This document shows positions 43,562 through 62,042 of a stretch of 64,000 nt of DNA, piece by piece. Under the pieces are notes generated by a model, which was not told the DNA's origin, did no database searches, and saw only the letters and a program-made list of their open reading frames with translations. Made by a program: the position numbers and the translations under genes. Origin of the DNA: Gilvibacter sp. (GTDB taxonomy: Bacteria; Bacteroidota; Bacteroidia; Flavobacteriales; Flavobacteriaceae). Position 1 is the first letter of the stretch. Every line of letters starts with the position of its first letter. Location: contig OZ255720.1 of the NCBI GenBank assembly GCA_965277295.1, forward strand, positions 215,376 to 279,375. Reading direction: 5' to 3'.

Positions 43562-44439
43562 GTGTTATAAATGCAAGAGCAGTCCAAAACAGTACCGCAT
43601 TTTATTCTGGTTGGAGCCATGAAGGCAGGAACAACAAGCCTTAGGTTTCATTTAAACAATCACCCCCATATTCATTTACCCCAGCGAGAGCTCAACTTTT
43701 TTAACAACCAAAAAAACTTTAATCGAGCTTTAGCATGGTATCAAGAACAAATTGCAAAAGACGCTAAAGATTCGGCGACATTGTTTGGCGAAAAATCTCC
43801 AGCCTATACTTTAGAAGAGTTTGTTCCCAAAAGAATGCATGAGCTTTTGCCCGACGCTAAATTAATCTGGGTATTACGCAATCCTGTAGATAGAACCTAT
43901 TCTAATTATTTACACGAATTAAAGCTAGGGCTGGAAAATCTAAGTTTTAACCAAGCCTTAAATGCCGAACCTACACGGGCAGTTAAAACCATTAAATACG
44001 CCTATACAACAAACAGTATGTACAGCCAGCAAATCGAGCGTTTTTTGGAGTTCTACCCGAAGTCCCAATGTTTTTTTGTGCTGTTCGACGATTTAATTAA
44101 GCCCTATGGCAGCACTCATGTTTTAAACGATTTATTTAACTTTTTAGGAGTCGATACCAGTACATTTAACTACGTAAACGGAGTCAGAAATAAAACAACA
44201 TTGCCTAGGTATCCCAAGTTACTTTTTTATGCCAATAGATGGGGTTTAACTAAATCTTGGAAAATTAAAAAGGCGTTAAACACCTTTAATTTTAAGAATC
44301 AAAAGCCGGGTTATCCTAAATTAACGCAAACACAGCGAGCGGAATTAGCAAAAAAATTCGAACCACATAACGCAAAACTAAGCGCGCTAATAGGCAAAGA
44401 TTTAAGCGGTTGGAATAGGTAGTTTAGTTGGTGTTATAA
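43562..44439. repeat. 9-bp direct repeat GTGTTATAA flanking the inverted sulfotransferase
   Basis: Copies at 43562-43570 (abutting ATG) and 44431-44439. Confidence 0.5.
43571..44422 (+). CDS. PAPS-dependent sulfotransferase (heparan-sulfate 3-OST/NDST-like motifs)
   Basis: 5'-PSB VGAMKAGTTSL, GEKSPAY, 3'-PB LRNPVDRTYS. Confidence 0.88.
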   Translation: MQEQSKTVPHFILVGAMKAGTTSLRFHLNNHPHIHLPQRELNFFNNQKNFNRALAWYQEQIAKDAKDSATLFGEKSPAYTLEEFVPKRMHELLPDAKLIWVLRNPVDRTYSNYLHELKLGLENLSFNQALNAEPTRAVKTIKYAYTTNSMYSQQIERFLEFYPKSQCFFVLFDDLIKPYGSTHVLNDLFNFLGVDTSTFNYVNGVRNKTTLPRYPKLLFYANRWGLTKSWKIKKALNTFNFKNQKPGYPKLTQTQRAELAKKFEPHNAKLSALIGKDLSGWNR

Positions 44440-47772: not shown

Positions 47773-48474
47773 TTATTTGATCATGGTTCCGTAAAACCCA
47801 GTATTCATAGTGCTTTCCTTCCATTGTTTAGGTGGAATGTCTCTTTTAACTAACCATTTAATTACCGGAAGACTTATGCGTTGCAACATACGTTTTTTCC
47901 ACGATGGCCTTAAATGTCTCTTAACCCACAACCCAATCATTAGAGCTAAACTCGCATTAAAACCTCCTAACGACTTAATGCTAATTTCTTTAAAACCAAC
48001 TTCCTTAAACATGCGCTCGAGTGTAAATGGAGTATACCGGTAAGCATCATGGGGTACTTCATGTAATGGCCATATAAACGGAACAGTAAAAAAGAATACT
48101 CCACCAGGCTCCATTACGCGGTAAACTTCTGTTAAATAAGCAATTGGATCTGGACAATGTTCTAATACTTCGGTAGCAATAACAGTGTTATAAGATGCAT
48201 CGGCAATAGGCATTACTTTGCCATCCCAAAATAGATCTGGTTTTACTTGATTAGAATAAGCAATCGCGCTTTCAATATCGAGTCCCGTATAGCTCAAAAT
48301 ACTGGAATGTTCTTTTAAGAACTCACGATATGGCATTTTGCCGCAGCCTGCATCTAGTAAATCCCCTTTAAATTGCACCATACTCTCCTGAATAGCTGTA
48401 AAAATAGAAGTCCGCACATAATAACGGTCTAGTGTATTTGAGTTAAGCGGTATGTTTATAAACTGATTATCCAT
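47773..48474 (-). CDS. Class I SAM-dependent methyltransferase
   Basis: LLDAGCG motif I; EVLEH, VPF.WP.HE.P.D..RYT. Confidence 0.9.
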   Translation of the reverse strand: MDNQFINIPLNSNTLDRYYVRTSIFTAIQESMVQFKGDLLDAGCGKMPYREFLKEHSSILSYTGLDIESAIAYSNQVKPDLFWDGKVMPIADASYNTVIATEVLEHCPDPIAYLTEVYRVMEPGGVFFFTVPFIWPLHEVPHDAYRYTPFTLERMFKEVGFKEISIKSLGGFNASLALMIGLWVKRHLRPSWKKRMLQRISLPVIKWLVKRDIPPKQWKESTMNTGFYGTMIK

Positions 48475-51092: not shown

Positions 51093-51959
51093 CTAATATT
51101 TTAAGTTAAGATAAGACTTATATAAAAATTGTAGCAAAGCATTTTTCCCAAATCTGTTCTTACAAATTTTAACAATTAATCTCCTTCGCTTTTTCCGCAC
51201 AATCTCCATCTCATTTGGATTTAAATGAGGAATAATTACCTTATAAAAATTTAAATACAAAAATGTTTGGGTGTGCGCATTTAAACGCTGATAAACTCCC
51301 TGAGCATGAACCCTATAAACAGACATTACGCTATCCAGACATTTTATTTTTTTATTTCTTGCCACCAAATAATATAAAGCTAAATCACCAAAATTAACTT
51401 CCGTAAACCAACTTGGAATTGTAAAATCTTTTGGAATCCTAAACACAGCACTTGCCGTAGTAATAAAGTTGTAATGTCTTAACAAATCCGCATAACTATA
51501 AACATTATCCTCGGAAGGAGGAATTGGGTGGAGCTCTAAGTCTGAATCGTTTCTCAATACTTTTGCTCTGTGAAAACAAATCCCATAACTAGAATTTTGC
51601 TCCATAAAATCCACTTGTTTTTGCAGTTTTAATGGGTCCGTCCAGTAGTCGTCACCTTCACAAAGCGCAACATATTTTCCCCTGGCTACCTTTAAATTTT
51701 CCATAAAGTTAAAGCGACCCGTAGCATTTCCATTTATATAAATTACATCTTCTCTATTTCTTAAGAACAGTCGAATTTTATCGGAATGTTTTTGTGCGTA
51801 TTCCTGGCAAATTGCTCGTGTACCATCTGTACTATGGTCTTCACCTAAAATTATTTCGATCTTGAAATTAGTTTCCTGCATTAGGACACTATCAATGCAT
51901 TGAGCAATAAATTCCTCGTGGTTGTATGTAGTAATTAAAACGCTTACAGGAATATCCAT
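51093..51959 (-). CDS. GT2 glycosyltransferase
   Basis: SVLITTYN, GED.STDGT, CEGDDYW.D..KLQKQ. Confidence 0.92.
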   Translation of the reverse strand: MDIPVSVLITTYNHEEFIAQCIDSVLMQETNFKIEIILGEDHSTDGTRAICQEYAQKHSDKIRLFLRNREDVIYINGNATGRFNFMENLKVARGKYVALCEGDDYWTDPLKLQKQVDFMEQNSSYGICFHRAKVLRNDSDLELHPIPPSEDNVYSYADLLRHYNFITTASAVFRIPKDFTIPSWFTEVNFGDLALYYLVARNKKIKCLDSVMSVYRVHAQGVYQRLNAHTQTFLYLNFYKVIIPHLNPNEMEIVRKKRRRLIVKICKNRFGKNALLQFLYKSYLNLKY

Positions 51960-51965
51960 TAAGCT

Positions 51966-53015
51966 CTAATATTGATAATATGTGTATGGCAAACTAATTC
52001 CTGTTTTTCTTGCCAACCGTTCGTTTGACTCAATAAACATATTTTTTAGAAACGTTAAGATTTCATTCGGATAAGAAAACCTAATCTCTTGTTCATTGTT
52101 TTTAAGCTGTTTCGCCTTAGTAATATTTTCATTTTTGATTCTCGCATCTTTGTAAAGCAAGCTTTCTTCAATAGAAATATTCAACTCATCACAAAAATAG
52201 TCTTTAAGACGATGAAAGTTAGTTCCAGTGCTAAAAGATTGATTTCCTAATCCATGTACATGAGTTTTATTAAGCTCCCGCATATTATATAATTCGGTCA
52301 GGGATAAGGGTTTGTTATAATGGTCTAAATCCAATTCATAATCATCTAAACCTAGAACCTGAGATAACTTGTTTGTGAGTAAGCAGGTGTTATTTTCATA
52401 ACGCAACTTACCAGATTCATCTCGATAATTTTCAATACAAATAATTTCAATATTTTCGGCACCAAAAAGATTGGAATAAATATTATAAAGATAGTCGTAT
52501 TGAAAATCAAAAATAAAATTTCGATCTCGAGAATAGTAAATAAAGTCTAAGAAATCATTAAATGTTCCGTAATAGCCAATTTTTATAGCTTCTTTGTACA
52601 AAGACTCTATTAGGCTTCTTTGATTTCGAATTATCAAAACGATTTTTGTGCCCAATCCAAAGGCGTTAAATACTCTTTTGGCTTTTTCTTCGATTTCTAT
52701 TTGATCCGTTGTAAATGTAAAAGAAAGTAGCTCTAACGAAATACCACAAACTCTTTTGGTTTGATTAGTTTCAAACTTCTCGAACTCACTATTAAATGCT
52801 CTAGATATACCAAGTTTTGCTTTTTGGTAAGTGAAATTTTTACTGTATTGAAAATGATTTTCACAGGCTGATGCAATTTTAGGGTTTATGTAATCCACAT
52901 TTGAACCTACTCCAACCCCTAAATGATGAATTTGAGGATGCTTACTAAAGAAGTCTCGCTGCAGACTAGTAGACAAGTTTTTCGGCATTCCAATATGAAT
53001 ATATTTTGTCTTCAT
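51966..53015 (-). CDS. Divergent sulfotransferase-fold protein
   Basis: HIGMPK..STSLQ (5'-PSB-like), S.E.LS, IIRNQ....ESLY (3'-PB-like). Confidence 0.6.
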   Translation of the reverse strand: MKTKYIHIGMPKNLSTSLQRDFFSKHPQIHHLGVGVGSNVDYINPKIASACENHFQYSKNFTYQKAKLGISRAFNSEFEKFETNQTKRVCGISLELLSFTFTTDQIEIEEKAKRVFNAFGLGTKIVLIIRNQRSLIESLYKEAIKIGYYGTFNDFLDFIYYSRDRNFIFDFQYDYLYNIYSNLFGAENIEIICIENYRDESGKLRYENNTCLLTNKLSQVLGLDDYELDLDHYNKPLSLTELYNMRELNKTHVHGLGNQSFSTGTNFHRLKDYFCDELNISIEESLLYKDARIKNENITKAKQLKNNEQEIRFSYPNEILTFLKNMFIESNERLARKTGISLPYTYYQY

Positions 53016-53950
53016 TAATCTTCTGTTAAAATAGCATAACCAAACCCAGTTTCACCAAATCCGTTTCCATTATAAACCAAAAACCGCTGGTTATTTACTA
53101 CGAAAGTAGAACTATATTCTTGCATGATCGATTCCCAGTCTTGAACATCTTTCTTAAAATCGATTTCTTCGTCTTTTCTTTCCCAATAGATACCATCTTT
53201 GGAGGTTGCAAATCCAAGCCTATAACTTTGATTTGGGTCTACGCGGTAGTCTAAAGAATTGCGATAAGAATAAATCATATGGTAGCAATTGTCCTGCTTA
53301 TAAACCATTGGCTTTCCAATAGCATGAGTAAAATCATCGTAACCAATACACTCTATATTTTTACGCTCCCAATCAATACCATTTTTTGATTCAGCATATC
53401 TGATTAAATAAAAAGGCTCTGGCCAATTTTTAATGTTTTTCCATCCTGTGCAAGATACATACCACATTCTCCATAAATTTCCTTCTTTAATAACATAAGG
53501 CGCAGTATTAAAATAAGGTTCCTCCTTATCTCTATCTAATAGTGGCCCAACTGAATATTTTTTAAAATTAATTCCATCTTCACTCACTGCAAGGCCTATG
53601 GATAGTCTATAGGACACCGTTATCTGTGGGTTCCAACCGATGTAGTACATAAATAGTCTTCCATTTGTCTCTACAATGGATGACGGCATAATACCATTGT
53701 CGTCAAAGCTTCCTTGCGGACCCAGAGGTAAAATCGGTTCTTTATGGATATTGAGTATTTTGTTAGGCTCTTGTGCAGAAACGTCAATAAATGTAGGTAT
53801 GCTTCTACCATGCTCATCTCTTGTTGCAAAATAGATTCTTACCTTTTCTTTAGAAACAAGATGACATACCGGTAATGCTGCATAGCTGTTAATCCAATTA
53901 GAAGTATTTTTTTTTGGATTAAAAATTAAGCCCTTCTTTTTCCACTGCAT
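53015..53950 (-). CDS. Uncharacterised beta-propeller (GH32/43/130-like fold) protein
   Basis: Repeated blades: G.FD..G, MYYIGW, GLA.S.DG..F, W.MWY, YA.S..G..W, GFA.S.DG..W, YNGNGFG.TG; no signal peptide. Confidence 0.6.
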   Translation of the reverse strand: MQWKKKGLIFNPKKNTSNWINSYAALPVCHLVSKEKVRIYFATRDEHGRSIPTFIDVSAQEPNKILNIHKEPILPLGPQGSFDDNGIMPSSIVETNGRLFMYYIGWNPQITVSYRLSIGLAVSEDGINFKKYSVGPLLDRDKEEPYFNTAPYVIKEGNLWRMWYVSCTGWKNIKNWPEPFYLIRYAESKNGIDWERKNIECIGYDDFTHAIGKPMVYKQDNCYHMIYSYRNSLDYRVDPNQSYRLGFATSKDGIYWERKDEEIDFKKDVQDWESIMQEYSSTFVVNNQRFLVYNGNGFGETGFGYAILTED

Positions 53951-53951
53951 A

Positions 53952-54611
53952 CTAGTAAATATTATAACTTAATTTTCCTTCAATTTTCTTCGCGGGATTT
54001 CCTATATAAACTCCCCACTCATCCGTTTCTTGTTTTGTAATACAAGCGCCCATTGCCACTAAGGTTCCTTGCTTTAAATGACTGTAGTCTCGAATTGTTG
54101 CGTTCACACCAAAAAAACAATGCGACTCCACAATACAATGCCCAGAGAGAACAACATGCGAAGTAAAAAACACATGGTCCTTAATTACTCCATGATGCCC
54201 AATATGATTACCACTCCAAAGCACTACATTATTCCCAATTGTTGTGAATGGTTGAATGGTATTATCTTCTAATATAAAACAATTTTCACCTATTTCATTG
54301 TCACAAATAGTAGCCTTACTGCTTATGTAGGATATAAAAGAATAGCCTTTTGCCTTTCCTTCTAGGTAAATTTTTTCTCGTGCTTGATTCATCTTTTTAC
54401 CCGTCATGGGTGCAAATAACATAAAGTCATCTGGAGAATAAACCTTTTCTAATTCTTCAAAAGGGATTACGGGTAAGTTCTTAAATGTATCATTTTTTAA
54501 ATACTCTTTCGAAACCGTAAAAGCTACAACCTCATGTTCGCTATCAGTGGTTAAATAATAATGTGCCAATTCCGCCGTATCCAACAATCCGAATATGATC
54601 ACTTCTGCCAT
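53952..54611 (-). CDS. Sugar N/O-acyltransferase (NeuD/PglD/VioB family)
   Basis: N-terminal Rossmann IIFG; hexapeptide repeats, N.IGH, G.PAK. Confidence 0.88.
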   Translation of the reverse strand: MAEVIIFGLLDTAELAHYYLTTDSEHEVVAFTVSKEYLKNDTFKNLPVIPFEELEKVYSPDDFMLFAPMTGKKMNQAREKIYLEGKAKGYSFISYISSKATICDNEIGENCFILEDNTIQPFTTIGNNVVLWSGNHIGHHGVIKDHVFFTSHVVLSGHCIVESHCFFGVNATIRDYSHLKQGTLVAMGACITKQETDEWGVYIGNPAKKIEGKLSYNIY

Positions 54612-54613
54612 AA

Positions 54614-55312
54614 TTAACTAAGTTTATATTGATTTAATAGCTCTAGAACTTCTTCTCTAGATTTAATCATTAAAAGATGAATGATTGAAAGTTCGTAATC
54701 ATTTTTATTACTTACACTCTGGAATTGAGTTTCAATAAATTTAAGTTTAATCCCGTTCTCTAAAAAATAACCTTTATCATATAATTTTTTTCCTCCAATT
54801 GGATTAACGTATACATTGGAACCATTTTTTTTGGTAATTGCAATTAACCTATCAGCAGATCTCAAGTCATGCGTGTCTGAAAAATGCTCTGAACTTTTCA
54901 AGAATTCTGTTTCTAATTCCAAATATGATGTGATTGAACTAATACTGTTTATCGCCAAGTCCGCGATACTCTTATTTGATTTATAGAAAACAGACTGTGT
55001 TAGATCGAAAACTTCCTCAAAAAACGGTGCCTTGGCGTAGTTTTGTTGTAAAGTAGTAAAAAACTGATTAACCCATTTATCGCTTTCTTTGATATAAACA
55101 TCCTTAATTAATTTATTCTGAGAAACATGCTGTAAGGGAATTGAAAATAAATACTCATTACCATTAATCAATAATTTATTTCGATTTATCCATCCACGTT
55201 TTATGAAATTTACATCATCATAAAACACAAATACATCTACTTTACTTATTAACTGGAAATACCCTATGTACGGAAAGAGGTAAGGTTGCATTATTGCAAT
55301 AGAGTTATTCAT
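54614..55312 (-). CDS. WbqC family protein
   Basis: AIMQPY.FPYIGYFQLI..VD.FV.YDDV, W.NRN, Y.KAPFF, Y.NP.GG, LSI. Confidence 0.92.
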   Translation of the reverse strand: MNNSIAIMQPYLFPYIGYFQLISKVDVFVFYDDVNFIKRGWINRNKLLINGNEYLFSIPLQHVSQNKLIKDVYIKESDKWVNQFFTTLQQNYAKAPFFEEVFDLTQSVFYKSNKSIADLAINSISSITSYLELETEFLKSSEHFSDTHDLRSADRLIAITKKNGSNVYVNPIGGKKLYDKGYFLENGIKLKFIETQFQSVSNKNDYELSIIHLLMIKSREEVLELLNQYKLS

Positions 55313-56370
55313 GAATTGAGAACATTTACTATTCGGTTTAAATCAACGACGTCAATATCATGTGACAATGGTAGGCACATAATCCGCTTTGAAATATCAT
55401 CAGAGATAGGTAATTCTTTGGATTCGACATACGGGAGATTATTTAAACTGGGATAAAAGTATCTTCGAGGAAAAATATTTATATTATTGAGTCTCTCACG
55501 TTGTTCTAGCAAGTCTGCTTCTGAAGCAAAAATAATTGGATAATACGAAAAATTCCAAAGTGTATTTTCTCGAATTTGAACCGAGTTATATTTTTTTAAA
55601 GCATTTTTATAAAAGCCAACCATATTTTTACGATGCTGCATTATAGTTTTAATATGAGGTAAAACAGCTAGTCCCATGGCTGCTTGTAATTCGGACATTT
55701 TCGCATTAATACCTAGGCCTTTAAAATCTTCCTTCCCCTCATGTCCAAAATTATGATAGCTGAATAATTTTTGAATCAAGCTATTATTTTTTGTAAATAT
55801 TGCTCCACCCTCTCCCGTATGAAACAGTTTGGTAGCATGAAAACTACAAGTACTTATATCTCCATAATTAAATATGGACTCTCCTTTATAAGTTACCCCA
55901 AAGCAATGTGCAGCATCGTAAATAACTTTTAAGTTGTGCTTTTTGGCAATTGCTGCAATGGCCTCTACATGGCAGGGATTCCCAAAAACATGGGTTGCCA
56001 GTATGGCCGAAGTGTTGTTGGTAATTGCAGCTTCTATTTTAGTTTCGTCTATGGTAAGGTATTCCGGGTGAATATCTACAAAAACGGGTGTACAGCCTTC
56101 CCAAACTATACTCGACGTTGTTGCCACATAACTAAAAGGGGTAGTAATAATCTCACCGCTTAAGTTAAGCGCCTTAATTGCAAGTTGTAAGGGCAAAGTA
56201 CCATTTGTCATTGCCAAACAAGGTGAAGATCCAAGATAAGTCTCAATTTTACCCTCTAATTCTTTTACCAATTCACCACGATTTGTAAGCCAGTGGTTAT
56301 CCCACGCTCTTTTTAAAATCGCACCATACTCAGATTGTGGTGGCAAAAATGTTTTAGTTACATGTATCAA
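55309..56370 (-). CDS. DegT/DnrJ/EryC1/StrS sugar aminotransferase (VioA-like)
   Basis: NGT..L, TPFSY.AT, THVFGNP, DAAH, SFHATKLF.T.EGG, NAKMSE.QAA. Confidence 0.9.
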   Translation of the reverse strand: MIHVTKTFLPPQSEYGAILKRAWDNHWLTNRGELVKELEGKIETYLGSSPCLAMTNGTLPLQLAIKALNLSGEIITTPFSYVATTSSIVWEGCTPVFVDIHPEYLTIDETKIEAAITNNTSAILATHVFGNPCHVEAIAAIAKKHNLKVIYDAAHCFGVTYKGESIFNYGDISTCSFHATKLFHTGEGGAIFTKNNSLIQKLFSYHNFGHEGKEDFKGLGINAKMSELQAAMGLAVLPHIKTIMQHRKNMVGFYKNALKKYNSVQIRENTLWNFSYYPIIFASEADLLEQRERLNNINIFPRRYFYPSLNNLPYVESKELPISDDISKRIMCLPLSHDIDVVDLNRIVNVLNS

Positions 56371-56423: not shown

Positions 56424-57479
56424 TCATTCAAAGTTCAGATTCGATTTTAACAGGAATTCCTCAACAAGTTTTTTTGTTAAAAGTTGAGCTCCTTTGTCAT
56501 TTAAATGACCAACATCAAAAGAATATTCCAGTTCATAGAACTCTGGATATTTCACACTACTGGAAAGATCAATGATATGAGCACTTGGAATTTGATCTGC
56601 TAGTTGATATAAGCCCTTGCTTCCATATCGAGGTAGAATTAAAAAAATCAAGTGAATACCTCGCTGCTTAGAGGTACCGATTAATTTATTTAATTCACTT
56701 AGTAAATCTGCATCATAATACTCACCAGAATTTCTTAAAAACATTGAGCGATTCGCTCTTGCTTTTAAAAGAGTAGAGTCTTGAATAACGGAATTATGGT
56801 TATTGATTAAATTTCTTCTTATAGTACTATCCTCAACTTTTTCTAATTCATCTTCTAGTGAATAAAACCCATCCAACCTAGGACCTAAATACACGCTGTT
56901 TAATTGGTATTTTCCAAGTAGTTTACTTCCAAAATAATCTTTTCTAAATATTTTATCGAAATACGATTTGGAATAACCCGAAATCCCGTATAATTTTTGC
57001 TCCAAACTTAGACTATCTCTATTCAAATAAGACTTCGTTATTAATTTCATATCACTTAGGTTTAACCAATAATACGAGCGCTTTTGATGCAATAATTTGG
57101 GAGCGGTATTCGTAATTGTAGTTAATTCAAAAAAAGCATATTTTACATCTTTACTTAAGTCCGATTTAAGATAATTTCGGTACAAATATTGGGATTGGGG
57201 GCTAAAAGTGGCTGGAGCACCCAAATTAAAAGAGGAAATTTTTTTTTGAGTAATCATGTTTACTTCACGGTCAAATACCTCTGGAGTTATTTGCCTGTAA
57301 ACCCGGCTAGAACCGAAAAACAATACGTTTGGTTGTAATTCATTGTTACCCTGCAAAAATTCAACCTTCGAGGCAAACCACTGATTACCCCAATAATATG
57401 GGGCAAAACTATTCATAACTTGTTTGATAAAAACTACAAGAAAGAACAGTACAGAAACTCGCTTTAGGAGCTTTAACAT
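56424..57479 (-). CDS. Membrane-anchored SGNH-like (DltD/AlgJ-type) protein
   Basis: N-terminal TM; FGSSR nucleophile block; C-terminal FD.GHLN.KGA (DxxH). Confidence 0.6.
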   Translation of the reverse strand: MLKLLKRVSVLFFLVVFIKQVMNSFAPYYWGNQWFASKVEFLQGNNELQPNVLFFGSSRVYRQITPEVFDREVNMITQKKISSFNLGAPATFSPQSQYLYRNYLKSDLSKDVKYAFFELTTITNTAPKLLHQKRSYYWLNLSDMKLITKSYLNRDSLSLEQKLYGISGYSKSYFDKIFRKDYFGSKLLGKYQLNSVYLGPRLDGFYSLEDELEKVEDSTIRRNLINNHNSVIQDSTLLKARANRSMFLRNSGEYYDADLLSELNKLIGTSKQRGIHLIFLILPRYGSKGLYQLADQIPSAHIIDLSSSVKYPEFYELEYSFDVGHLNDKGAQLLTKKLVEEFLLKSNLNFE

Positions 57480-57550: not shown

Positions 57551-58186
57551 CTAAATATCACTAGATCTATTTTCCCAGGGAAAGTTATCGTATTTGGGTT
57601 CTTTATTTAAAAACTCACAAAGTCTTTTGTATGCTCCTTCTTTAGCAACATTTAAAACTAGTAAATTATTCTTGTTCTTAAAGTAATCTAATACCGATGC
57701 ATTATGGGTGTTGTAGTAGTTTCGCAATTTACGTTCGTTGTAGGGATCTTCGGTGCGTTGAATTCCAAAAACTAACTCACGTACTTGTGCCACATATCCT
57801 TTATAACGATAGGTAGCGTTATCTAAATCCTCCCAGGTTGGCTTGTTCTGGTTTTTAGAAAACAACTTGGTGTGAAAATTAACCAATGAGTTGTACCAAA
57901 CCGTGTCGTTATCTCTAATTGTTAGAATAAATTTGGCGTTGCTAAAAGCTTGGTCTAAAGCAATAAAAGTATGTTGAAAGCAAAACGGTGCATCTTGAAA
58001 GGCGTCGGCGGTTTTGCAGAATTTTATAATTGGCTTAAAATTCCTAGAGGCGTAATCATTAATAAACAACTCACCTTGCTTTTGGCTCCCTAATTTATAA
58101 CCAAAATCGTTAAGGGCTTTTTCTATCGAGGTTGTTCCGGTTTTACCAGACCCAACACAGAATATTTTTTCTTTCTTACCCAACAT
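57551..58186 (-). CDS. Sulfotransferase (Sulfotransfer_4-like)
   Basis: CVG.GKTGTTS, D.P, F.NAKFILT.R....W..S, HN..V.DYF, LC.FL. Confidence 0.8.
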   Translation of the reverse strand: MLGKKEKIFCVGSGKTGTTSIEKALNDFGYKLGSQKQGELFINDYASRNFKPIIKFCKTADAFQDAPFCFQHTFIALDQAFSNAKFILTIRDNDTVWYNSLVNFHTKLFSKNQNKPTWEDLDNATYRYKGYVAQVRELVFGIQRTEDPYNERKLRNYYNTHNASVLDYFKNKNNLLVLNVAKEGAYKRLCEFLNKEPKYDNFPWENRSSDI

Positions 58187-58192
58187 TTAAAA

Positions 58193-59398
58193 TCAATTTA
58201 AATCGGTTAACGTTGTTTCTAGGTAAAAGGGCGGCCAAATTTCTTCTTCGTGTATTACTTGAAAATTTAATACTCCGTTTACTCTTAATAAGGGTTCTCT
58301 AGAATTGGGTTTTACCACACTAATATTAACCGAATAAATACCCTTAGACAACATTAATTGTTCGTGTTCCATACAAAACTGAATCTTATTATCTTTAATT
58401 TTAAGGCCATCTTGAATTTTATTAGGTTCTAACATAGCCACCGGACGTTGTTCTTTGTCATAAATTGAAATATGGAAAGAAGGAATATCTTGCTCCTTTT
58501 TTAATTCAAATACTAACCGTAATTTAAATTTACCCTTCCATTGTATTTGTGGCTGTTCGTTTTGGCTATTAACCCCTAACAATTCTGCTCTTGTTAAAGC
58601 AATTGTATTGTCATCGAAAATTATATTCTGTTCGTTATTCGTAAATCGCTGATAATACAAATCAATGGCTTTTGATACATTAGTTCCTTGAAATGCATCC
58701 GCTCCTCTTTCCATTAATAGAACATGCGTACAAATCCTAGAAACCATAGGCATGGAATGCGACACAAACACAATGGCGGTATTGGGTAAGATGTTATCTA
58801 TGGTTTTAAAACACTTTAAAACAAAACCCAAATCGCCAACAGCCAATACTTCGTCTATTATTAAAATGTCGGGCTCCATTTGTGCAGCAACAGCAAAGCC
58901 CAAGCGCACCTTCATCCCCGAGCTATAATGTTGTACTGGCATATCTATAAACTCTTCGAGTTCTGCAAATTCAATAATCTGAGTAAGCTTAGTGTCTATT
59001 TCTTCACGAGTAAAGCCTAGTACAGCACCATTATTATAAATATTTTCGCGCCCTGTGAGGATATTATTAAATCCTGCACCTAGTTCTATTAAGGCTCCCA
59101 CACGCCCTTTCATGGTAATACTGCCAACATCTGGACGTATTAAACCATTAAGCATTTTTAAAAGTGTAGATTTTCCCGCACCGTTATGCCCTATTAACCC
59201 TAGGCATTCACCACGACGCAATTCAAAATTTATATCCTTTACGGCCCAGAATTCTTTAGGACGTAACATATCTGACTTATTATTGCCAAAAACATTGGCA
59301 AATAAATCCTGTAATCCGTATTTAAGTCCCGTTTTTAGGTCTTTACAAAACTTCTTAGAGAGGTTTTCTACTTTTATTAAAACTTCCTGCTCTTCCAT
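58193..59398 (-). CDS. wzt: Polysaccharide ABC transporter ATPase with C-terminal carbohydrate-binding extension
   Basis: GHNGAGKS, ELGAGF, YSSGM..RLGF, DEVLAVGD, SH; about 150-aa Wzt_C-like tail. Confidence 0.93.
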   Translation of the reverse strand: MEEQEVLIKVENLSKKFCKDLKTGLKYGLQDLFANVFGNNKSDMLRPKEFWAVKDINFELRRGECLGLIGHNGAGKSTLLKMLNGLIRPDVGSITMKGRVGALIELGAGFNNILTGRENIYNNGAVLGFTREEIDTKLTQIIEFAELEEFIDMPVQHYSSGMKVRLGFAVAAQMEPDILIIDEVLAVGDLGFVLKCFKTIDNILPNTAIVFVSHSMPMVSRICTHVLLMERGADAFQGTNVSKAIDLYYQRFTNNEQNIIFDDNTIALTRAELLGVNSQNEQPQIQWKGKFKLRLVFELKKEQDIPSFHISIYDKEQRPVAMLEPNKIQDGLKIKDNKIQFCMEHEQLMLSKGIYSVNISVVKPNSREPLLRVNGVLNFQVIHEEEIWPPFYLETTLTDLN

Positions 59399-59400
59399 AA

Positions 59401-60246
59401 TTATGCGCTACTACGTTCAACAATTATTGGAATAGAAACTCTATAAAATACTAAAGCAATTAAAAATATTGGAATACACGATAGCAAAACAATAAGATAA
59501 TACTGTAAGTGTTCGGTTGGATTGCCAAGTATGGTGCCTCTAGCCATAAGTATTAAAGGACTAAATGGATTGTATTCCATAATGGTCTTCATTATACCTT
59601 CGCTTGGAACAACATATACCACAGGAGTTATATACATTAAAAAGCGCAATGCAGTCATAATTAGCTTAGATACGTCATTATATAAAAGCCCAATGGGCGT
59701 AAGAATTAATCCCAACGAAAACCCAAAGAAAACGGCTCCCAACATAATAATTGGGAACAGCCATATACTGTGATGATAATCTACACCAAAAATAAAAAGT
59801 AAGATTATTAATAATAGTATTTTGGGTATGGCGTTAAATAATAATTTGTAAATACCAGAAAGTAACAAAGCTTCTTTAGGAAAATTAATCTTAGAGATTA
59901 TACTTTTAGCACTACTGGTACTGGTTTGGGGCGAATTAATTGCCCCTACTATTATCGACCAGATTAATGTCCCCGAAAACGCATAGACAGGATACGGAAT
60001 TCCAGTATCTGTTAACTGAATTGTTCCTGTCGCTTGTAAAAACACCCAGACTAAGGCTGTAGTAACCGGAGTTATAAATGCCCAAACAATGCCCAAATAA
60101 GATTGCCGGTATTGCGCCTTGATGTCGCGAATAGCAATTTGCTTAGCCAAAAACGTACTTCCAGCAAGGTCGCGCAAGCTCGCTCCAAGCACCTTTAAAA
60201 TACTGGTATTACCGCGATTAGAATAAACTTTGGTTTGGTTGTTCAT
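59401..60246 (-). CDS. wzm: Polysaccharide ABC transporter permease
   Basis: RDIK.QYRQS.LG..WA, K.NFP.E, Y.TP..Y, YNP. Confidence 0.93.
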   Translation of the reverse strand: MNNQTKVYSNRGNTSILKVLGASLRDLAGSTFLAKQIAIRDIKAQYRQSYLGIVWAFITPVTTALVWVFLQATGTIQLTDTGIPYPVYAFSGTLIWSIIVGAINSPQTSTSSAKSIISKINFPKEALLLSGIYKLLFNAIPKILLLIILLFIFGVDYHHSIWLFPIIMLGAVFFGFSLGLILTPIGLLYNDVSKLIMTALRFLMYITPVVYVVPSEGIMKTIMEYNPFSPLILMARGTILGNPTEHLQYYLIVLLSCIPIFLIALVFYRVSIPIIVERSSA

Positions 60247-60391: not shown

Positions 60392-61270
60392 TTACACATT
60401 ATTATTAACCAGTTGTTTACAAGCGTTTATTAGCGACGCCGATATGGAATAGTCCATTTTTCTGGCAAACAATGCCGTAGATTGTTTTATGGCTATAAAA
60501 TCAGTAGTATCTAGAAATGCAGGCAAACTACCATGGCGTTCCTGCCAAACAATAAAACGCTTATTGTCTTGAATCATGCTTCCTGCTAAAGTAGAATTCA
60601 TTAAAATAGTCTGAAAATAAAACTCTTCACTGCAAAAACTGTGTTTTAATCTTCTAAACAAGGCCGGGGTGTTAATATAAAAATTTACAACTTCCTGTAC
60701 AGCAGCACGATGCAAACTCCAATAGGTAGAACCTCCGTAAAGTGGTGGTAAATTTTTACTATATGCCCGTTTAAAACCTAATTTTTTTTGAATTGATAAT
60801 GCTTTTTGAATCCAACGCATAGACGATTTTGCATTCAACAAGTCGTAAAAATTATAGTAATCTATTCTGTCCATTCCCCCATTGTTCCAGCAACTAGCTG
60901 GCATGGTAAAATATTCTAAATAGCTCTTTCCATTTAGTTTAGAGAAGTGCTCTATAAAATAATTGTTAGTCTTAATGGGCATATCCTGACCAGTAATCAT
61001 ATGAAAGTATTCATATTCTTTGCTTTTCAGCGCCGTTTTACATAACAGTAAAATGCTTTTTAAGTGATTTCTCCCACCCCAGTTTACGTTATATTGCTGC
61101 CCAATAAAAACAATGTTTTTAACCTTAGCTAATTTTAGCTTTAACTGGGGCGATAAGGTTGATTTTTTGTCGATATGAATAAACAAACCAAACCTTGAAT
61201 CAAAACACGCCGCCAAGTCTAGCAGCTGTTCCAAATCCTTATAGGCGGTTATTAATATGGCGTGTTTCAT
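60392..61270 (-). CDS. GT14 (core-2/I-branching beta-1,6-GlcNAc transferase family) glycosyltransferase
   Basis: HAILI.AYK, IHID.K, V.WGG, TGQD.P, GS..WSL, EE..FQT, W, D, FARK. Confidence 0.88.
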   Translation of the reverse strand: MKHAILITAYKDLEQLLDLAACFDSRFGLFIHIDKKSTLSPQLKLKLAKVKNIVFIGQQYNVNWGGRNHLKSILLLCKTALKSKEYEYFHMITGQDMPIKTNNYFIEHFSKLNGKSYLEYFTMPASCWNNGGMDRIDYYNFYDLLNAKSSMRWIQKALSIQKKLGFKRAYSKNLPPLYGGSTYWSLHRAAVQEVVNFYINTPALFRRLKHSFCSEEFYFQTILMNSTLAGSMIQDNKRFIVWQERHGSLPAFLDTTDFIAIKQSTALFARKMDYSISASLINACKQLVNNNV

Positions 61271-61274
61271 AATA

Positions 61275-62042
61275 CTAATTAGCAAATTTGCGCTTTAAAC
61301 GCCCCCATTTATAAGCAAGGTAGGGATACTTTAGTCTAAAATTAAGCTTTCCCTGTTTGCCAAACAAAAGGGCTAAATCGGCAAAAGGAGCTATAGTCCA
61401 TTTACGTTTTTCTACAAAATTGTAATCTAAATACGCTAAATCTTTTTTGTAAAACCAAGCAACCATTGACTTTCTTTTTCTAGTGTAGAAAAATGAATAA
61501 TGCGGCAGCTTTTTGTTGTTTACATTGCTGTGCTGGCTAAAAAAATTAGCGGGTAAATTAAGGTCTTTTATAACCTTAGTAAATCCCTGTTGAATGTCTT
61601 CCATTCTAATAATACAATCGTAATCTATTGGGTTGCCGTCTAAGTGCAAATAGTCGTATTGCAGGGTTAAATGATCTCCCATATAGTCGCTATTAAGGGC
61701 ATTTAACCGCGCTTTAAAAGGGCCTGCCTTTTGTAGAAAATTAGAAAACGAACCGTAAACTCCAGTATTGAGCATAACCCAAGGATAATCTGAATAGGCT
61801 CTGGCAAACGGATTTCTTACAATAATAAATTTATAATACGAATCCCACTGGGGTTTTGTAACTAAACCAGATGCTAGCAGCTGTTTTGGCGTTGCGTGCT
61901 GCATGTGCAATTTAAACTCGCTGTTCCAACCATAGCCCATTACAGGATCCAATTGATTGGTCATGCCGAATGCTTCTTCTACAGTTGTACCTGCACATTT
62001 AGAAATATGTATAAAAATGCATTTATGTTTATGACTAACCAT
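61275..62042 (-). CDS. Sulfotransferase family 2 (CHST/HNK-1ST-like)
   Basis: FIHI.KCAGTT, VRNP..R..S.Y, H...Q, YD..IR.E, Y..D...L.Y. Confidence 0.85.
   Translation of the reverse strand: MVSHKHKCIFIHISKCAGTTVEEAFGMTNQLDPVMGYGWNSEFKLHMQHATPKQLLASGLVTKPQWDSYYKFIIVRNPFARAYSDYPWVMLNTGVYGSFSNFLQKAGPFKARLNALNSDYMGDHLTLQYDYLHLDGNPIDYDCIIRMEDIQQGFTKVIKDLNLPANFFSQHSNVNNKKLPHYSFFYTRKRKSMVAWFYKKDLAYLDYNFVEKRKWTIAPFADLALLFGKQGKLNFRLKYPYLAYKWGRLKRKFAN

Follow-up and report, generated by a model that had tools for sequence, protein, structure and literature searches.

A small sulfotransferase encoded directly behind a CBM-bearing Wzt in a Gilvibacter polysaccharide locus may supply a sulfate that the exporter reads

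The window analysed here, a stretch of 64,000 nucleotides from Gilvibacter sp. (contig OZ255720.1, positions 215,376 to 279,375 of the forward strand), contains a long minus-strand polysaccharide operon in a genome of 3.49 Mb that forms a single contig with about 37% G+C. In this operon, the genes wzm and wzt of an ATP-binding cassette (ABC) exporter are followed by the gene of a small sulfotransferase, which we call ST4. We tentatively favour the reading, to which we give somewhat less than an even chance, that ST4 adds a late sulfate forming part of what the exporter reads via the C-terminal carbohydrate-binding domain (CBM) of Wzt in this ABC-type locus. It draws on the observed gene order, on folds, on a conserved gene cassette, on a recurrent linkage to exporter genes, and on a co-variation between the CBM and the gene that follows wzt. 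In mechanistic terms, Wzm and Wzt would export an undecaprenyl-linked surface polysaccharide, for which the cassette would make, attach and sulfate an N-acyl-amino-dideoxyhexose residue, an acceptor sugar that we infer from the cassette alone. ST4, small and cytoplasmic, would act at a late stage, when the lipid-linked glycan is finished, and modify it at or close to the distal residue; the CBM would then bind an epitope that includes the sulfated residue before transport. The sulfate would serve as an export tag analogous to methyl, methyl-phosphate or 3-deoxy-D-manno-octulosonic acid (Kdo), the proven caps read by Wzt proteins (PMC9445017, PMC11231755). A cap consisting of terminal sulfate only is unproven.

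The exporter genes and ST4 are arranged as follows (aa, amino acids):

59401-60246, minus strand: wzm, ABC-2 type permease of the glycan exporter (open reading frame of 281 aa, hydrophobic, multi-helix)
58193-59398, minus strand: wzt, whole gene (open reading frame of 401 aa)
58649-59398, minus strand: nucleotide-binding domain (NBD) of wzt, residues 1-250 (ABC_tran, 84.6 bits, residues 53-184)
58196-58660, minus strand: predicted C-terminal CBM of wzt, last 155 aa (Wzt_C match, AlphaFold2 and Foldseek)
57551-58186, minus strand: ST4, putative sulfotransferase dependent on 3′-phosphoadenosine-5′-phosphosulfate (PAPS), 211 aa, first gene of the cassette (Sulfotransfer_4, PF17784)

The exporter genes are spaced by 2 nt, and among 80 loci fetched from other genomes by means of the ST4 protein (hereafter ST4 loci), 33 likewise encode a Wzm homologue immediately 5′ of wzt. 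Wzm itself gives a weak match to the NCBIfam model of the galactan export permease Wzm/RfbD (53 bits, under its cut-off). As read from the sequence, the ABC motifs of Wzt are intact: Walker A is GHNGAGKST, the signature YSSGM, Walker B ILIIDE and the H-loop VSH. The best solved relative of the full-length protein is Wzt of Aquifex aeolicus (8dku/7k2t, E 2e-58 in phmmer). A preliminary description of this DNA had noted an extension of about 150 aa past the ATPase domain and taken it for a CBM, and both points are borne out. The Wzt_C model (PF14524; cut-off 30.4 bits) aligns to Wzt residues 265-384, scoring 30.7 bits, and 33.3 bits when the genome was searched. Among PDB sequences, a CBM-only profile gave no match at E values up to 0.1. 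Modelled with AlphaFold2 from 41 homologues, the final 155 aa reach a pLDDT of 88.6, and the top matches of this model in a Foldseek search of the PDB are exclusively solved carbohydrate-binding domains of Wzt proteins with a probability of 1.0, namely 8dky/6o14 from A. aeolicus, 5hno/5hnp from Klebsiella pneumoniae O12 and 2r5o from E. coli O9a (E about 1e-7, TM 0.64-0.72). Because these top matches are all Wzt carbohydrate-binding domains, the tail is of the CBM fold. It also keeps the motifs that are conserved across its Wzt lineage.

The stop codon TGA of wzt ends at 58193 and is separated by the 6-nt spacer ttttaa from the ATG of ST4 at 58186, in agreement with the preliminary description, which had also recognised the neighbouring gene as a sulfotransferase. 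ST4 matches PF17784 over residues 7-210 of 211 with 96.9 bits (cut-off 22.8). In the family alignment, its PAPS-binding motifs, GxGKTGTTS and RD...S, do not vary: Among 18 diverse members, K15, T16, G17, T18, T19, R91 and S100 are identical throughout, and D92 is almost so. The nearest solved proteins are the sulfotransferases 5tiz, 9kf1, 8y9p and 4mua, the bacterial Sulfotransfer_4 structures and Schistosoma oxamniquine sulfotransferases, which belong to the same Pfam family and share the PAPS-binding scaffold; identity to them is low and the matches were obtained by profile search only. These solved proteins act on small molecules, whereas ST4 is found in the context of a lipid-linked glycan locus. 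The ST4 family is large and highly conserved, with more than 1000 homologues of 45-72% identity and a length of about 213 aa from Bacteroidota, Proteobacteria, Acidobacteriota, Planctomycetota, Chloroflexota, Firmicutes and others. PAPS could be supplied by an adenosine 5′-phosphosulfate kinase encoded elsewhere in the genome (2786703-2787152; PF01583, 231.7 bits). Judged by sequence, ST4 appears to be a bona fide member of the PAPS-type sulfotransferases.

What occupies the slot directly after wzt was surveyed in 80 Flavobacteriaceae wzt loci that had been picked by Wzt similarity only, 40 from the Wzt lineage of the window and 40 from a second lineage (35-50% identity). Labels come from Pfam scans of cluster representatives and local phmmer, with six of the 80 slot genes left unnamed:

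Sulfotransferase (three Pfam families): 25 of 80 by the original labels, with locus L107 as the 26th
Methyltransferase: 20 of 80
Pyruvyltransferase: 7 of 80
Kinase-domain protein of 620-630 aa: 3 of 80
DegT: 7 of 80
Glycosyltransferase: 7 of 80
Other or unnamed: 11 of 80

By these labels, 55 of the 80 slots hold a group-transfer enzyme, that is, a sulfo-, methyl- or pyruvyltransferase or a kinase-domain protein. The gene wbdD occupies what we take to be the same position after wzt in the E. coli O9a cluster. The kinase-domain proteins, found in the second Wzt lineage (L122:1510-3372, L124:2627-4519, L138:2761-4653), may be WbdD-like terminators in Flavobacteriaceae. Two further kinds of large protein were seen in this region. 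Fusions of a radical S-adenosylmethionine (SAM) domain with a polysaccharide pyruvyltransferase, 726-746 aa long, directly follow wzt in three loci (L111:2415-4655, L128:2318-4498, L153:1706-3886), and proteins of 711-714 aa are separated from wzt by the gene of a small sulfotransferase in three others (L093:2126-4270, L110:3110-5248, L112:3103-5238); the one of these that was scanned, from L093, has two methyltransferase domains.

Which family the slot gene belongs to is tracked by the CBM alone and not by the NBD, by Wzm or by the sugar aminotransferase DegT of the cassette. This follows from pairwise comparisons across 38 loci of the window's Wzt lineage, in which the NBD stays flat at 79% identity whether or not the slot class is shared, whereas CBM identity amounts to 39% in sulfotransferase-linked pairs, 33% in methyltransferase-linked pairs (50% within MT21, a group of FkbM-type methyltransferases) and 29% between classes. 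For Wzm (60/66/63%), DegT (67/65/66%) and the cassette glycosyltransferase GT2a (36/37/35%), the class has no effect on identity. Mapped onto the CBM tree, the slot-gene family requires 15 changes compared with 23.8 in shuffles (0 of 300 as low), but it is distributed randomly on the trees of the NBD (25 changes), Wzm (20 vs 20.0) and DegT (15 vs 15.7). The CBM signal persists in a sample free of ST4 ascertainment, with 11 changes vs a shuffled value of 17.3 (none of 500 shuffles as low). Moreover, two loci with MT21 in the slot and sulfotransferases farther downstream retain CBMs of the MT21 type, and the CBM of the window is nearer to sulfotransferase-linked CBMs (36-47% identity) than to MT21-linked ones (27-32%). 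Such co-variation would be expected of a slot enzyme that contributes to the epitope recognised by the CBM.

The adjacency of wzt and ST4 is not a matter of chance, because a Wzt gene lies immediately 5′ of ST4 in 22 of the 80 ST4 loci and one gene away in another 14; in most of these 14, the intervening gene encodes another sulfotransferase, of the Sulfotransfer_1/3 kind. The preliminary description had proposed to look for this linkage in other genomes, and with 36 of 80 ST4 loci within one gene it does recur. Across exporter types, 75 loci extend far enough upstream for a count, and in 53 of them (36 Wzt, 17 Wzx) an exporter gene adjoins ST4 or is one gene off.

A number of observations weigh against our favoured reading, the first of which concern the co-variation. 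Most of it stems from the single MT21 clade, and when this clade is removed the signal on the CBM tree is weak (10 changes vs 12.7; 8 of 500 shuffles as low). In addition, the CBM and the slot gene are contiguous between conserved recombination anchors, so that linkage alone could yield the co-variation: The flanking NBD (79%) and DegT (66%) are conserved and offer possible crossover sites. It is conceivable, although we regard it as improbable, that nothing more than this linkage of neighbouring variable DNA is at work, with a CBM that gates no cap and an export that needs no terminal mark. A terminal modification that is dispensable for export has a precedent in K. pneumoniae O1, though the transporter there has no CBM (PMC11231755). 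Against pure linkage speaks that every system studied needs its Wzt CBM, which recognises the terminated glycan specifically (PMC9445017, PMC11231755), and that the CBM of the window is well folded in the model and retains its lineage-conserved motifs.

The CBMs themselves also give reason for caution. Orthologous ST4 proteins pair with second-lineage CBMs that cannot be aligned to that of the window (9-19% identity), and no convergence of CBMs is seen across the two Wzt lineages. Within the second lineage, the CBMs linked to ST4 are just as similar to those from DegT-first loci that lack ST4 (21% vs 23%). Nor is there a basic bias: The net charge of the CBM is -3.3 when sulfotransferase-linked and -3.9 when methyltransferase-linked (window, -4), net charge and K+R content do not differ between the two classes in either lineage (p = 0.46, 0.30), and no column of the CBM alignment is basic solely in the sulfotransferase-linked class.

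The company that ST4 keeps points in the same direction. ST4 heads a recurrent cassette with the order ST4, DegT, WbqC-like protein, NeuD/VioB-like acetyltransferase, GH32/130-like beta-propeller, second sulfotransferase and GT2 glycosyltransferase. The window holds all seven genes, with one extra gene (56424-57479) inserted. Downstream of ST4, the members are:

55309-56370, minus strand: DegT/DesI-like sugar aminotransferase (PF01041, 292.6 bits)
54614-55312, minus strand: WbqC-like protein (PF08889, 211 bits; in 43 of 80 ST4 loci)
53952-54611, minus strand: putative sugar N-acetyltransferase of the NeuD/PglB/VioB family (Hexapep; TIGR03570 with 142 bits, not reaching the cut-off of 160.8)
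53015-53950, minus strand: GH32/GH130-like beta-propeller protein (weak Glyco_hydro_32N/130 matches; in 20 of 80 ST4 loci)
51966-53015, minus strand: STx, candidate second sulfotransferase of the cassette (PAPS-loop-like GMPKNLSTS and RNQRS motifs)
51093-51959, minus strand: GT2a, GT2 glycosyltransferase at the end of the cassette (PF00535, 83 bits; in 59 of 80 ST4 loci)

The best NCBIfam match of DegT is a dTDP-4-dehydro-6-deoxyglucose aminotransferase, under the equivalog cut-off. The N-acetyltransferase recurs in 27 of the 80 ST4 loci with a median identity of 70%, the beta-propeller protein also matches beta-1,2-mannobiose phosphorylase weakly, and STx, for which Pfam gave no match, has homologues in the same cassette position in 13 of the 80.

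DegT is the most constant partner of ST4, and the tie to it (74 of 80 loci) is closer than that to Wzt (41 of 80 flanks, 36 of 80 within one gene). The reverse linkage is weak, with ST4 found in only 4-5 of about 28 genomes that encode a close Wzt orthologue (59-68% identity). Furthermore, in 17 loci without Wzt, ST4 or a pair of a Sulfotransfer_1/3 enzyme and ST4 is preceded by a Wzx flippase (Polysacc_synt_3 in 10 of 10 scanned, E 1e-77 to 1e-100), and in at least two protein clusters (P0128 and P0131, 713 aa) Wzx carries ST4 as a C-terminal fusion, with Polysacc_synt_3 at residues 33-322 and Sulfotransfer_4 at residues 512-713. In these Wzx loci the role of ST4 cannot be that of a polymer cap read by a CBM. 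Since ST4 also follows Wzx, where neither a CBM nor a polymer cap is present, its adjacency to wzt can be a matter of cassette architecture. The argument of the preliminary description that a gene adjoining wzt would therefore make the cap is weakened by the DegT-bound cassette, the Wzx-linked loci and the Wzx fusions, and once the cassette and the Wzx-linked loci had emerged we dropped adjacency as evidence for capping. Its broader suggestion of a sulfate cap as an export signal keeps the backing of the CBM fold, the sulfotransferase, the recurrent linkage and the co-variation of CBM and slot gene, but has lost this argument.

In the main rival explanation, ST4 does no more than decorate internal residues of the repeat in a heavily sulfated polysaccharide, its adjacency reflects the layout of a cassette placed behind either exporter, and the CBM reads something else, for instance a terminal sugar that is unmodified or modified in another way. 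We regard it as quite possible, if on the doubtful side. The conserved DegT-containing cassette, the like position of ST4 after Wzx together with the Wzx fusions, the unalignable CBMs served by the same ST4, the missing basic bias and the resemblance of second-lineage ST4-linked CBMs to those of DegT-first loci all speak for it, and so does the presence of four sulfotransferases, as against one methyltransferase, in the locus. It leaves unexplained, however, why the CBM is the only part to follow the slot-gene family, and why so many of the surveyed slots are filled by group-transfer enzymes, among them kinase-domain proteins that resemble WbdD, a known terminator.

The coupling of this sulfotransferase family to exporters is genetic and, in the Wzx fusions, at times physical. 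On this basis, a wider generalisation of our favoured reading can be formulated, which we consider unlikely as it stands: Widespread small sulfotransferases coupled to both classes of lipid-linked glycan exporters would put a sulfate on the distal residue as a mark of a finished glycan, which the Wzt CBM would read as a cap, whereas in Wzx systems the sulfated unit would be taken by the flippase, and about one third of the sampled CBM-bearing wzt loci of Flavobacteriaceae would use sulfate in the slot that serves methyl, methyl-phosphate or Kdo in enterobacteria.

Several further arrangements were encountered among the ST4 relatives. A 716-aa protein (P0136) has a layout like that of P0128 and P0131, with an N-terminal part that carries no Pfam name, and Sulfotransfer_4 is also fused to glycosyltransferases (P0137, P0133 and P0139, the last with 1524 aa and the order GT2+GT4+ST4). 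On a contig binned as uncultured Alteromonas (L002), the order Ugd-epimerase-wzm-wzt-ST4-DegT-WbqC-acetyltransferase occurs with 58-65% protein identity to the window; either the genes were transferred between phyla or the contig is mis-binned. In L102/L070 (G014:C39:25539-28505), a tandem pair of CBM-bearing wzt genes, each with 61% identity to that of the window, is followed by DegT and ST4.

A comparison with characterised exporters shows which parts of the arrangement have precedents. In the polymannose systems of E. coli O9a/O8 and K. pneumoniae O3/O5 (Wzm, Wzt-CBM, WbdD), the exporter ATPase likewise carries a C-terminal jelly-roll CBM (2r5o), and a non-glycosyl group-transfer enzyme is likewise encoded beside wzt. 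WbdD, however, has 708 aa and combines methyltransferase and kinase with a coiled-coil ruler (PMC3482155), whereas the window encodes the 211-aa ST4, whose donor would be PAPS, and sequence similarity between the CBMs is undetectable by profile search. WzmWzt of A. aeolicus (8dky, 8dku, 7k2t) provides both the best sequence match of Wzt and the best fold match of the CBM, in the same NBD-CBM order, but differs in its cap, a 3-O-methyl-mannose/rhamnose whose methyl group is held in a hydrophobic pocket with Trp362 (PMC9445017). The K. pneumoniae O12/R. terrigena and A. salmonicida WbbB systems also possess a CBM-bearing Wzt (5hno fold match), and A. salmonicida A450, a studied pathogen, comes close to the window in that wzt, a gene for a 216-aa sulfotransferase-domain protein and wbbB lie in a row (PMC4483657); here the difference is a beta-Kdo cap that is added by a coiled-coil multidomain enzyme. 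Despite this order of genes, no sulfate has been reported for the A. salmonicida O-antigen (PMC4483657), which is a further point against a sulfate mark, although terminal sulfate in sub-stoichiometric amounts might go unnoticed when structures are analysed by routine means. Terminal pyruvate in K. pneumoniae O1b (WbbZ) resembles sulfate as an anionic, non-glycosyl group added in the cytoplasm, and pyruvyltransferases recur in our slot survey; pyruvate is a candidate cap, with candidate pyruvate terminators in B. vietnamiensis and P. protegens, but in K. pneumoniae O1 it is a dispensable terminal group that is not needed for export by a transporter without a CBM (PMC11231755, PMC10629545).

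With the known chain terminators (WbdD, WbbB and K. pneumoniae O4, O7 type), ST4 shares its place beside a CBM-bearing wzt. It departs from them in two respects that likewise count against a terminator function. They possess an extended coiled-coil ruler (PMC11231755), whereas ST4 with its 211 aa is all catalytic domain and has no coiled coil, and as no open reading frame between 44 and 64 kb exceeds 405 aa there is no room for a ruler of the WbdD/WbbB type, a judgement made from length and without a coiled-coil predictor. They are also restricted to ABC-dependent loci, whereas the ST4 family is found with Wzx flippases as well. Because the operon encodes no coiled-coil protein, ruler-type control of chain length is not predicted, and any effect of ST4 on elongation is conjectural.

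Our literature search found no description of a sulfotransferase as chain terminator or of a sulfate cap; the census of Mann, Kimber and Whitfield (2019, Glycobiology 29:822) lay outside its reach and may list such domains. The gating of export by a cap, as carried out by Wzt, is a form of quality control that has been studied well, and sulfate, if our favoured reading is true, would add to it an anionic, PAPS-dependent chemistry. Sulfate caps would then be common in marine Flavobacteriaceae, given a sulfotransferase directly after wzt in about 25 of 80 sampled loci, with implications for the biosynthesis of sulfated surface glycans in bacteria and for the turnover of carbon and sulfur in the sea. 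The Wzx-sulfotransferase fusions raise the idea that sulfation as a last step is coupled to export in both pathways. More than in the single gene pair, the main value of the analysis lies in the slot pattern seen across the family, in the co-variation of the CBM and in the fusions with Wzx.

A more conventional cap is offered by a methyltransferase of the same operon, which the preliminary description had named as the alternative to sulfate and which is indeed present:

47773-48474, minus strand: SAM methyltransferase, conventional alternative cap enzyme (Methyltransf_23/11)

The cap would then be a methyl group, as in the O8-type and A. aeolicus systems, and the sulfates would all be internal. 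Methyl is the commonest known cap (PMC9445017, PMC10629545), and methyltransferases are well represented in the slot survey. The gene, however, is situated about 10 kb from wzt amid variable glycosyltransferases, has a homologue in only 3 of the 80 ST4 loci, and belongs to a window whose CBM groups with sulfotransferase-linked rather than MT21-linked domains, which together make a methyl cap quite improbable here.

Four other genes of the locus complete the picture:

61275-62042, minus strand: Sulfotransfer_2 enzyme just upstream of wzm (Pfam match)
60392-61285, minus strand: GT14 'Branch' (Core-2/I-branching type) glycosyltransferase just upstream of wzm (Pfam match)
56424-57479, minus strand: DUF1574/LB_356-like protein with a transmembrane anchor, 351 aa, between ST4 and DegT (resembling DUF1574/LB_356 clusters)
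43571-44422, plus strand: Sulfotransfer_1/3 enzyme, whose relatives are the usual intervening gene between wzt and ST4

The inserted 351-aa protein, which has an N-terminal membrane anchor, matches no Pfam or NCBIfam model and has a homologue in only 2 of the 80 ST4 loci. Relatives of the Sulfotransfer_2 enzyme, on the other side of the exporter genes, occupy the slot after wzt in several other genomes.

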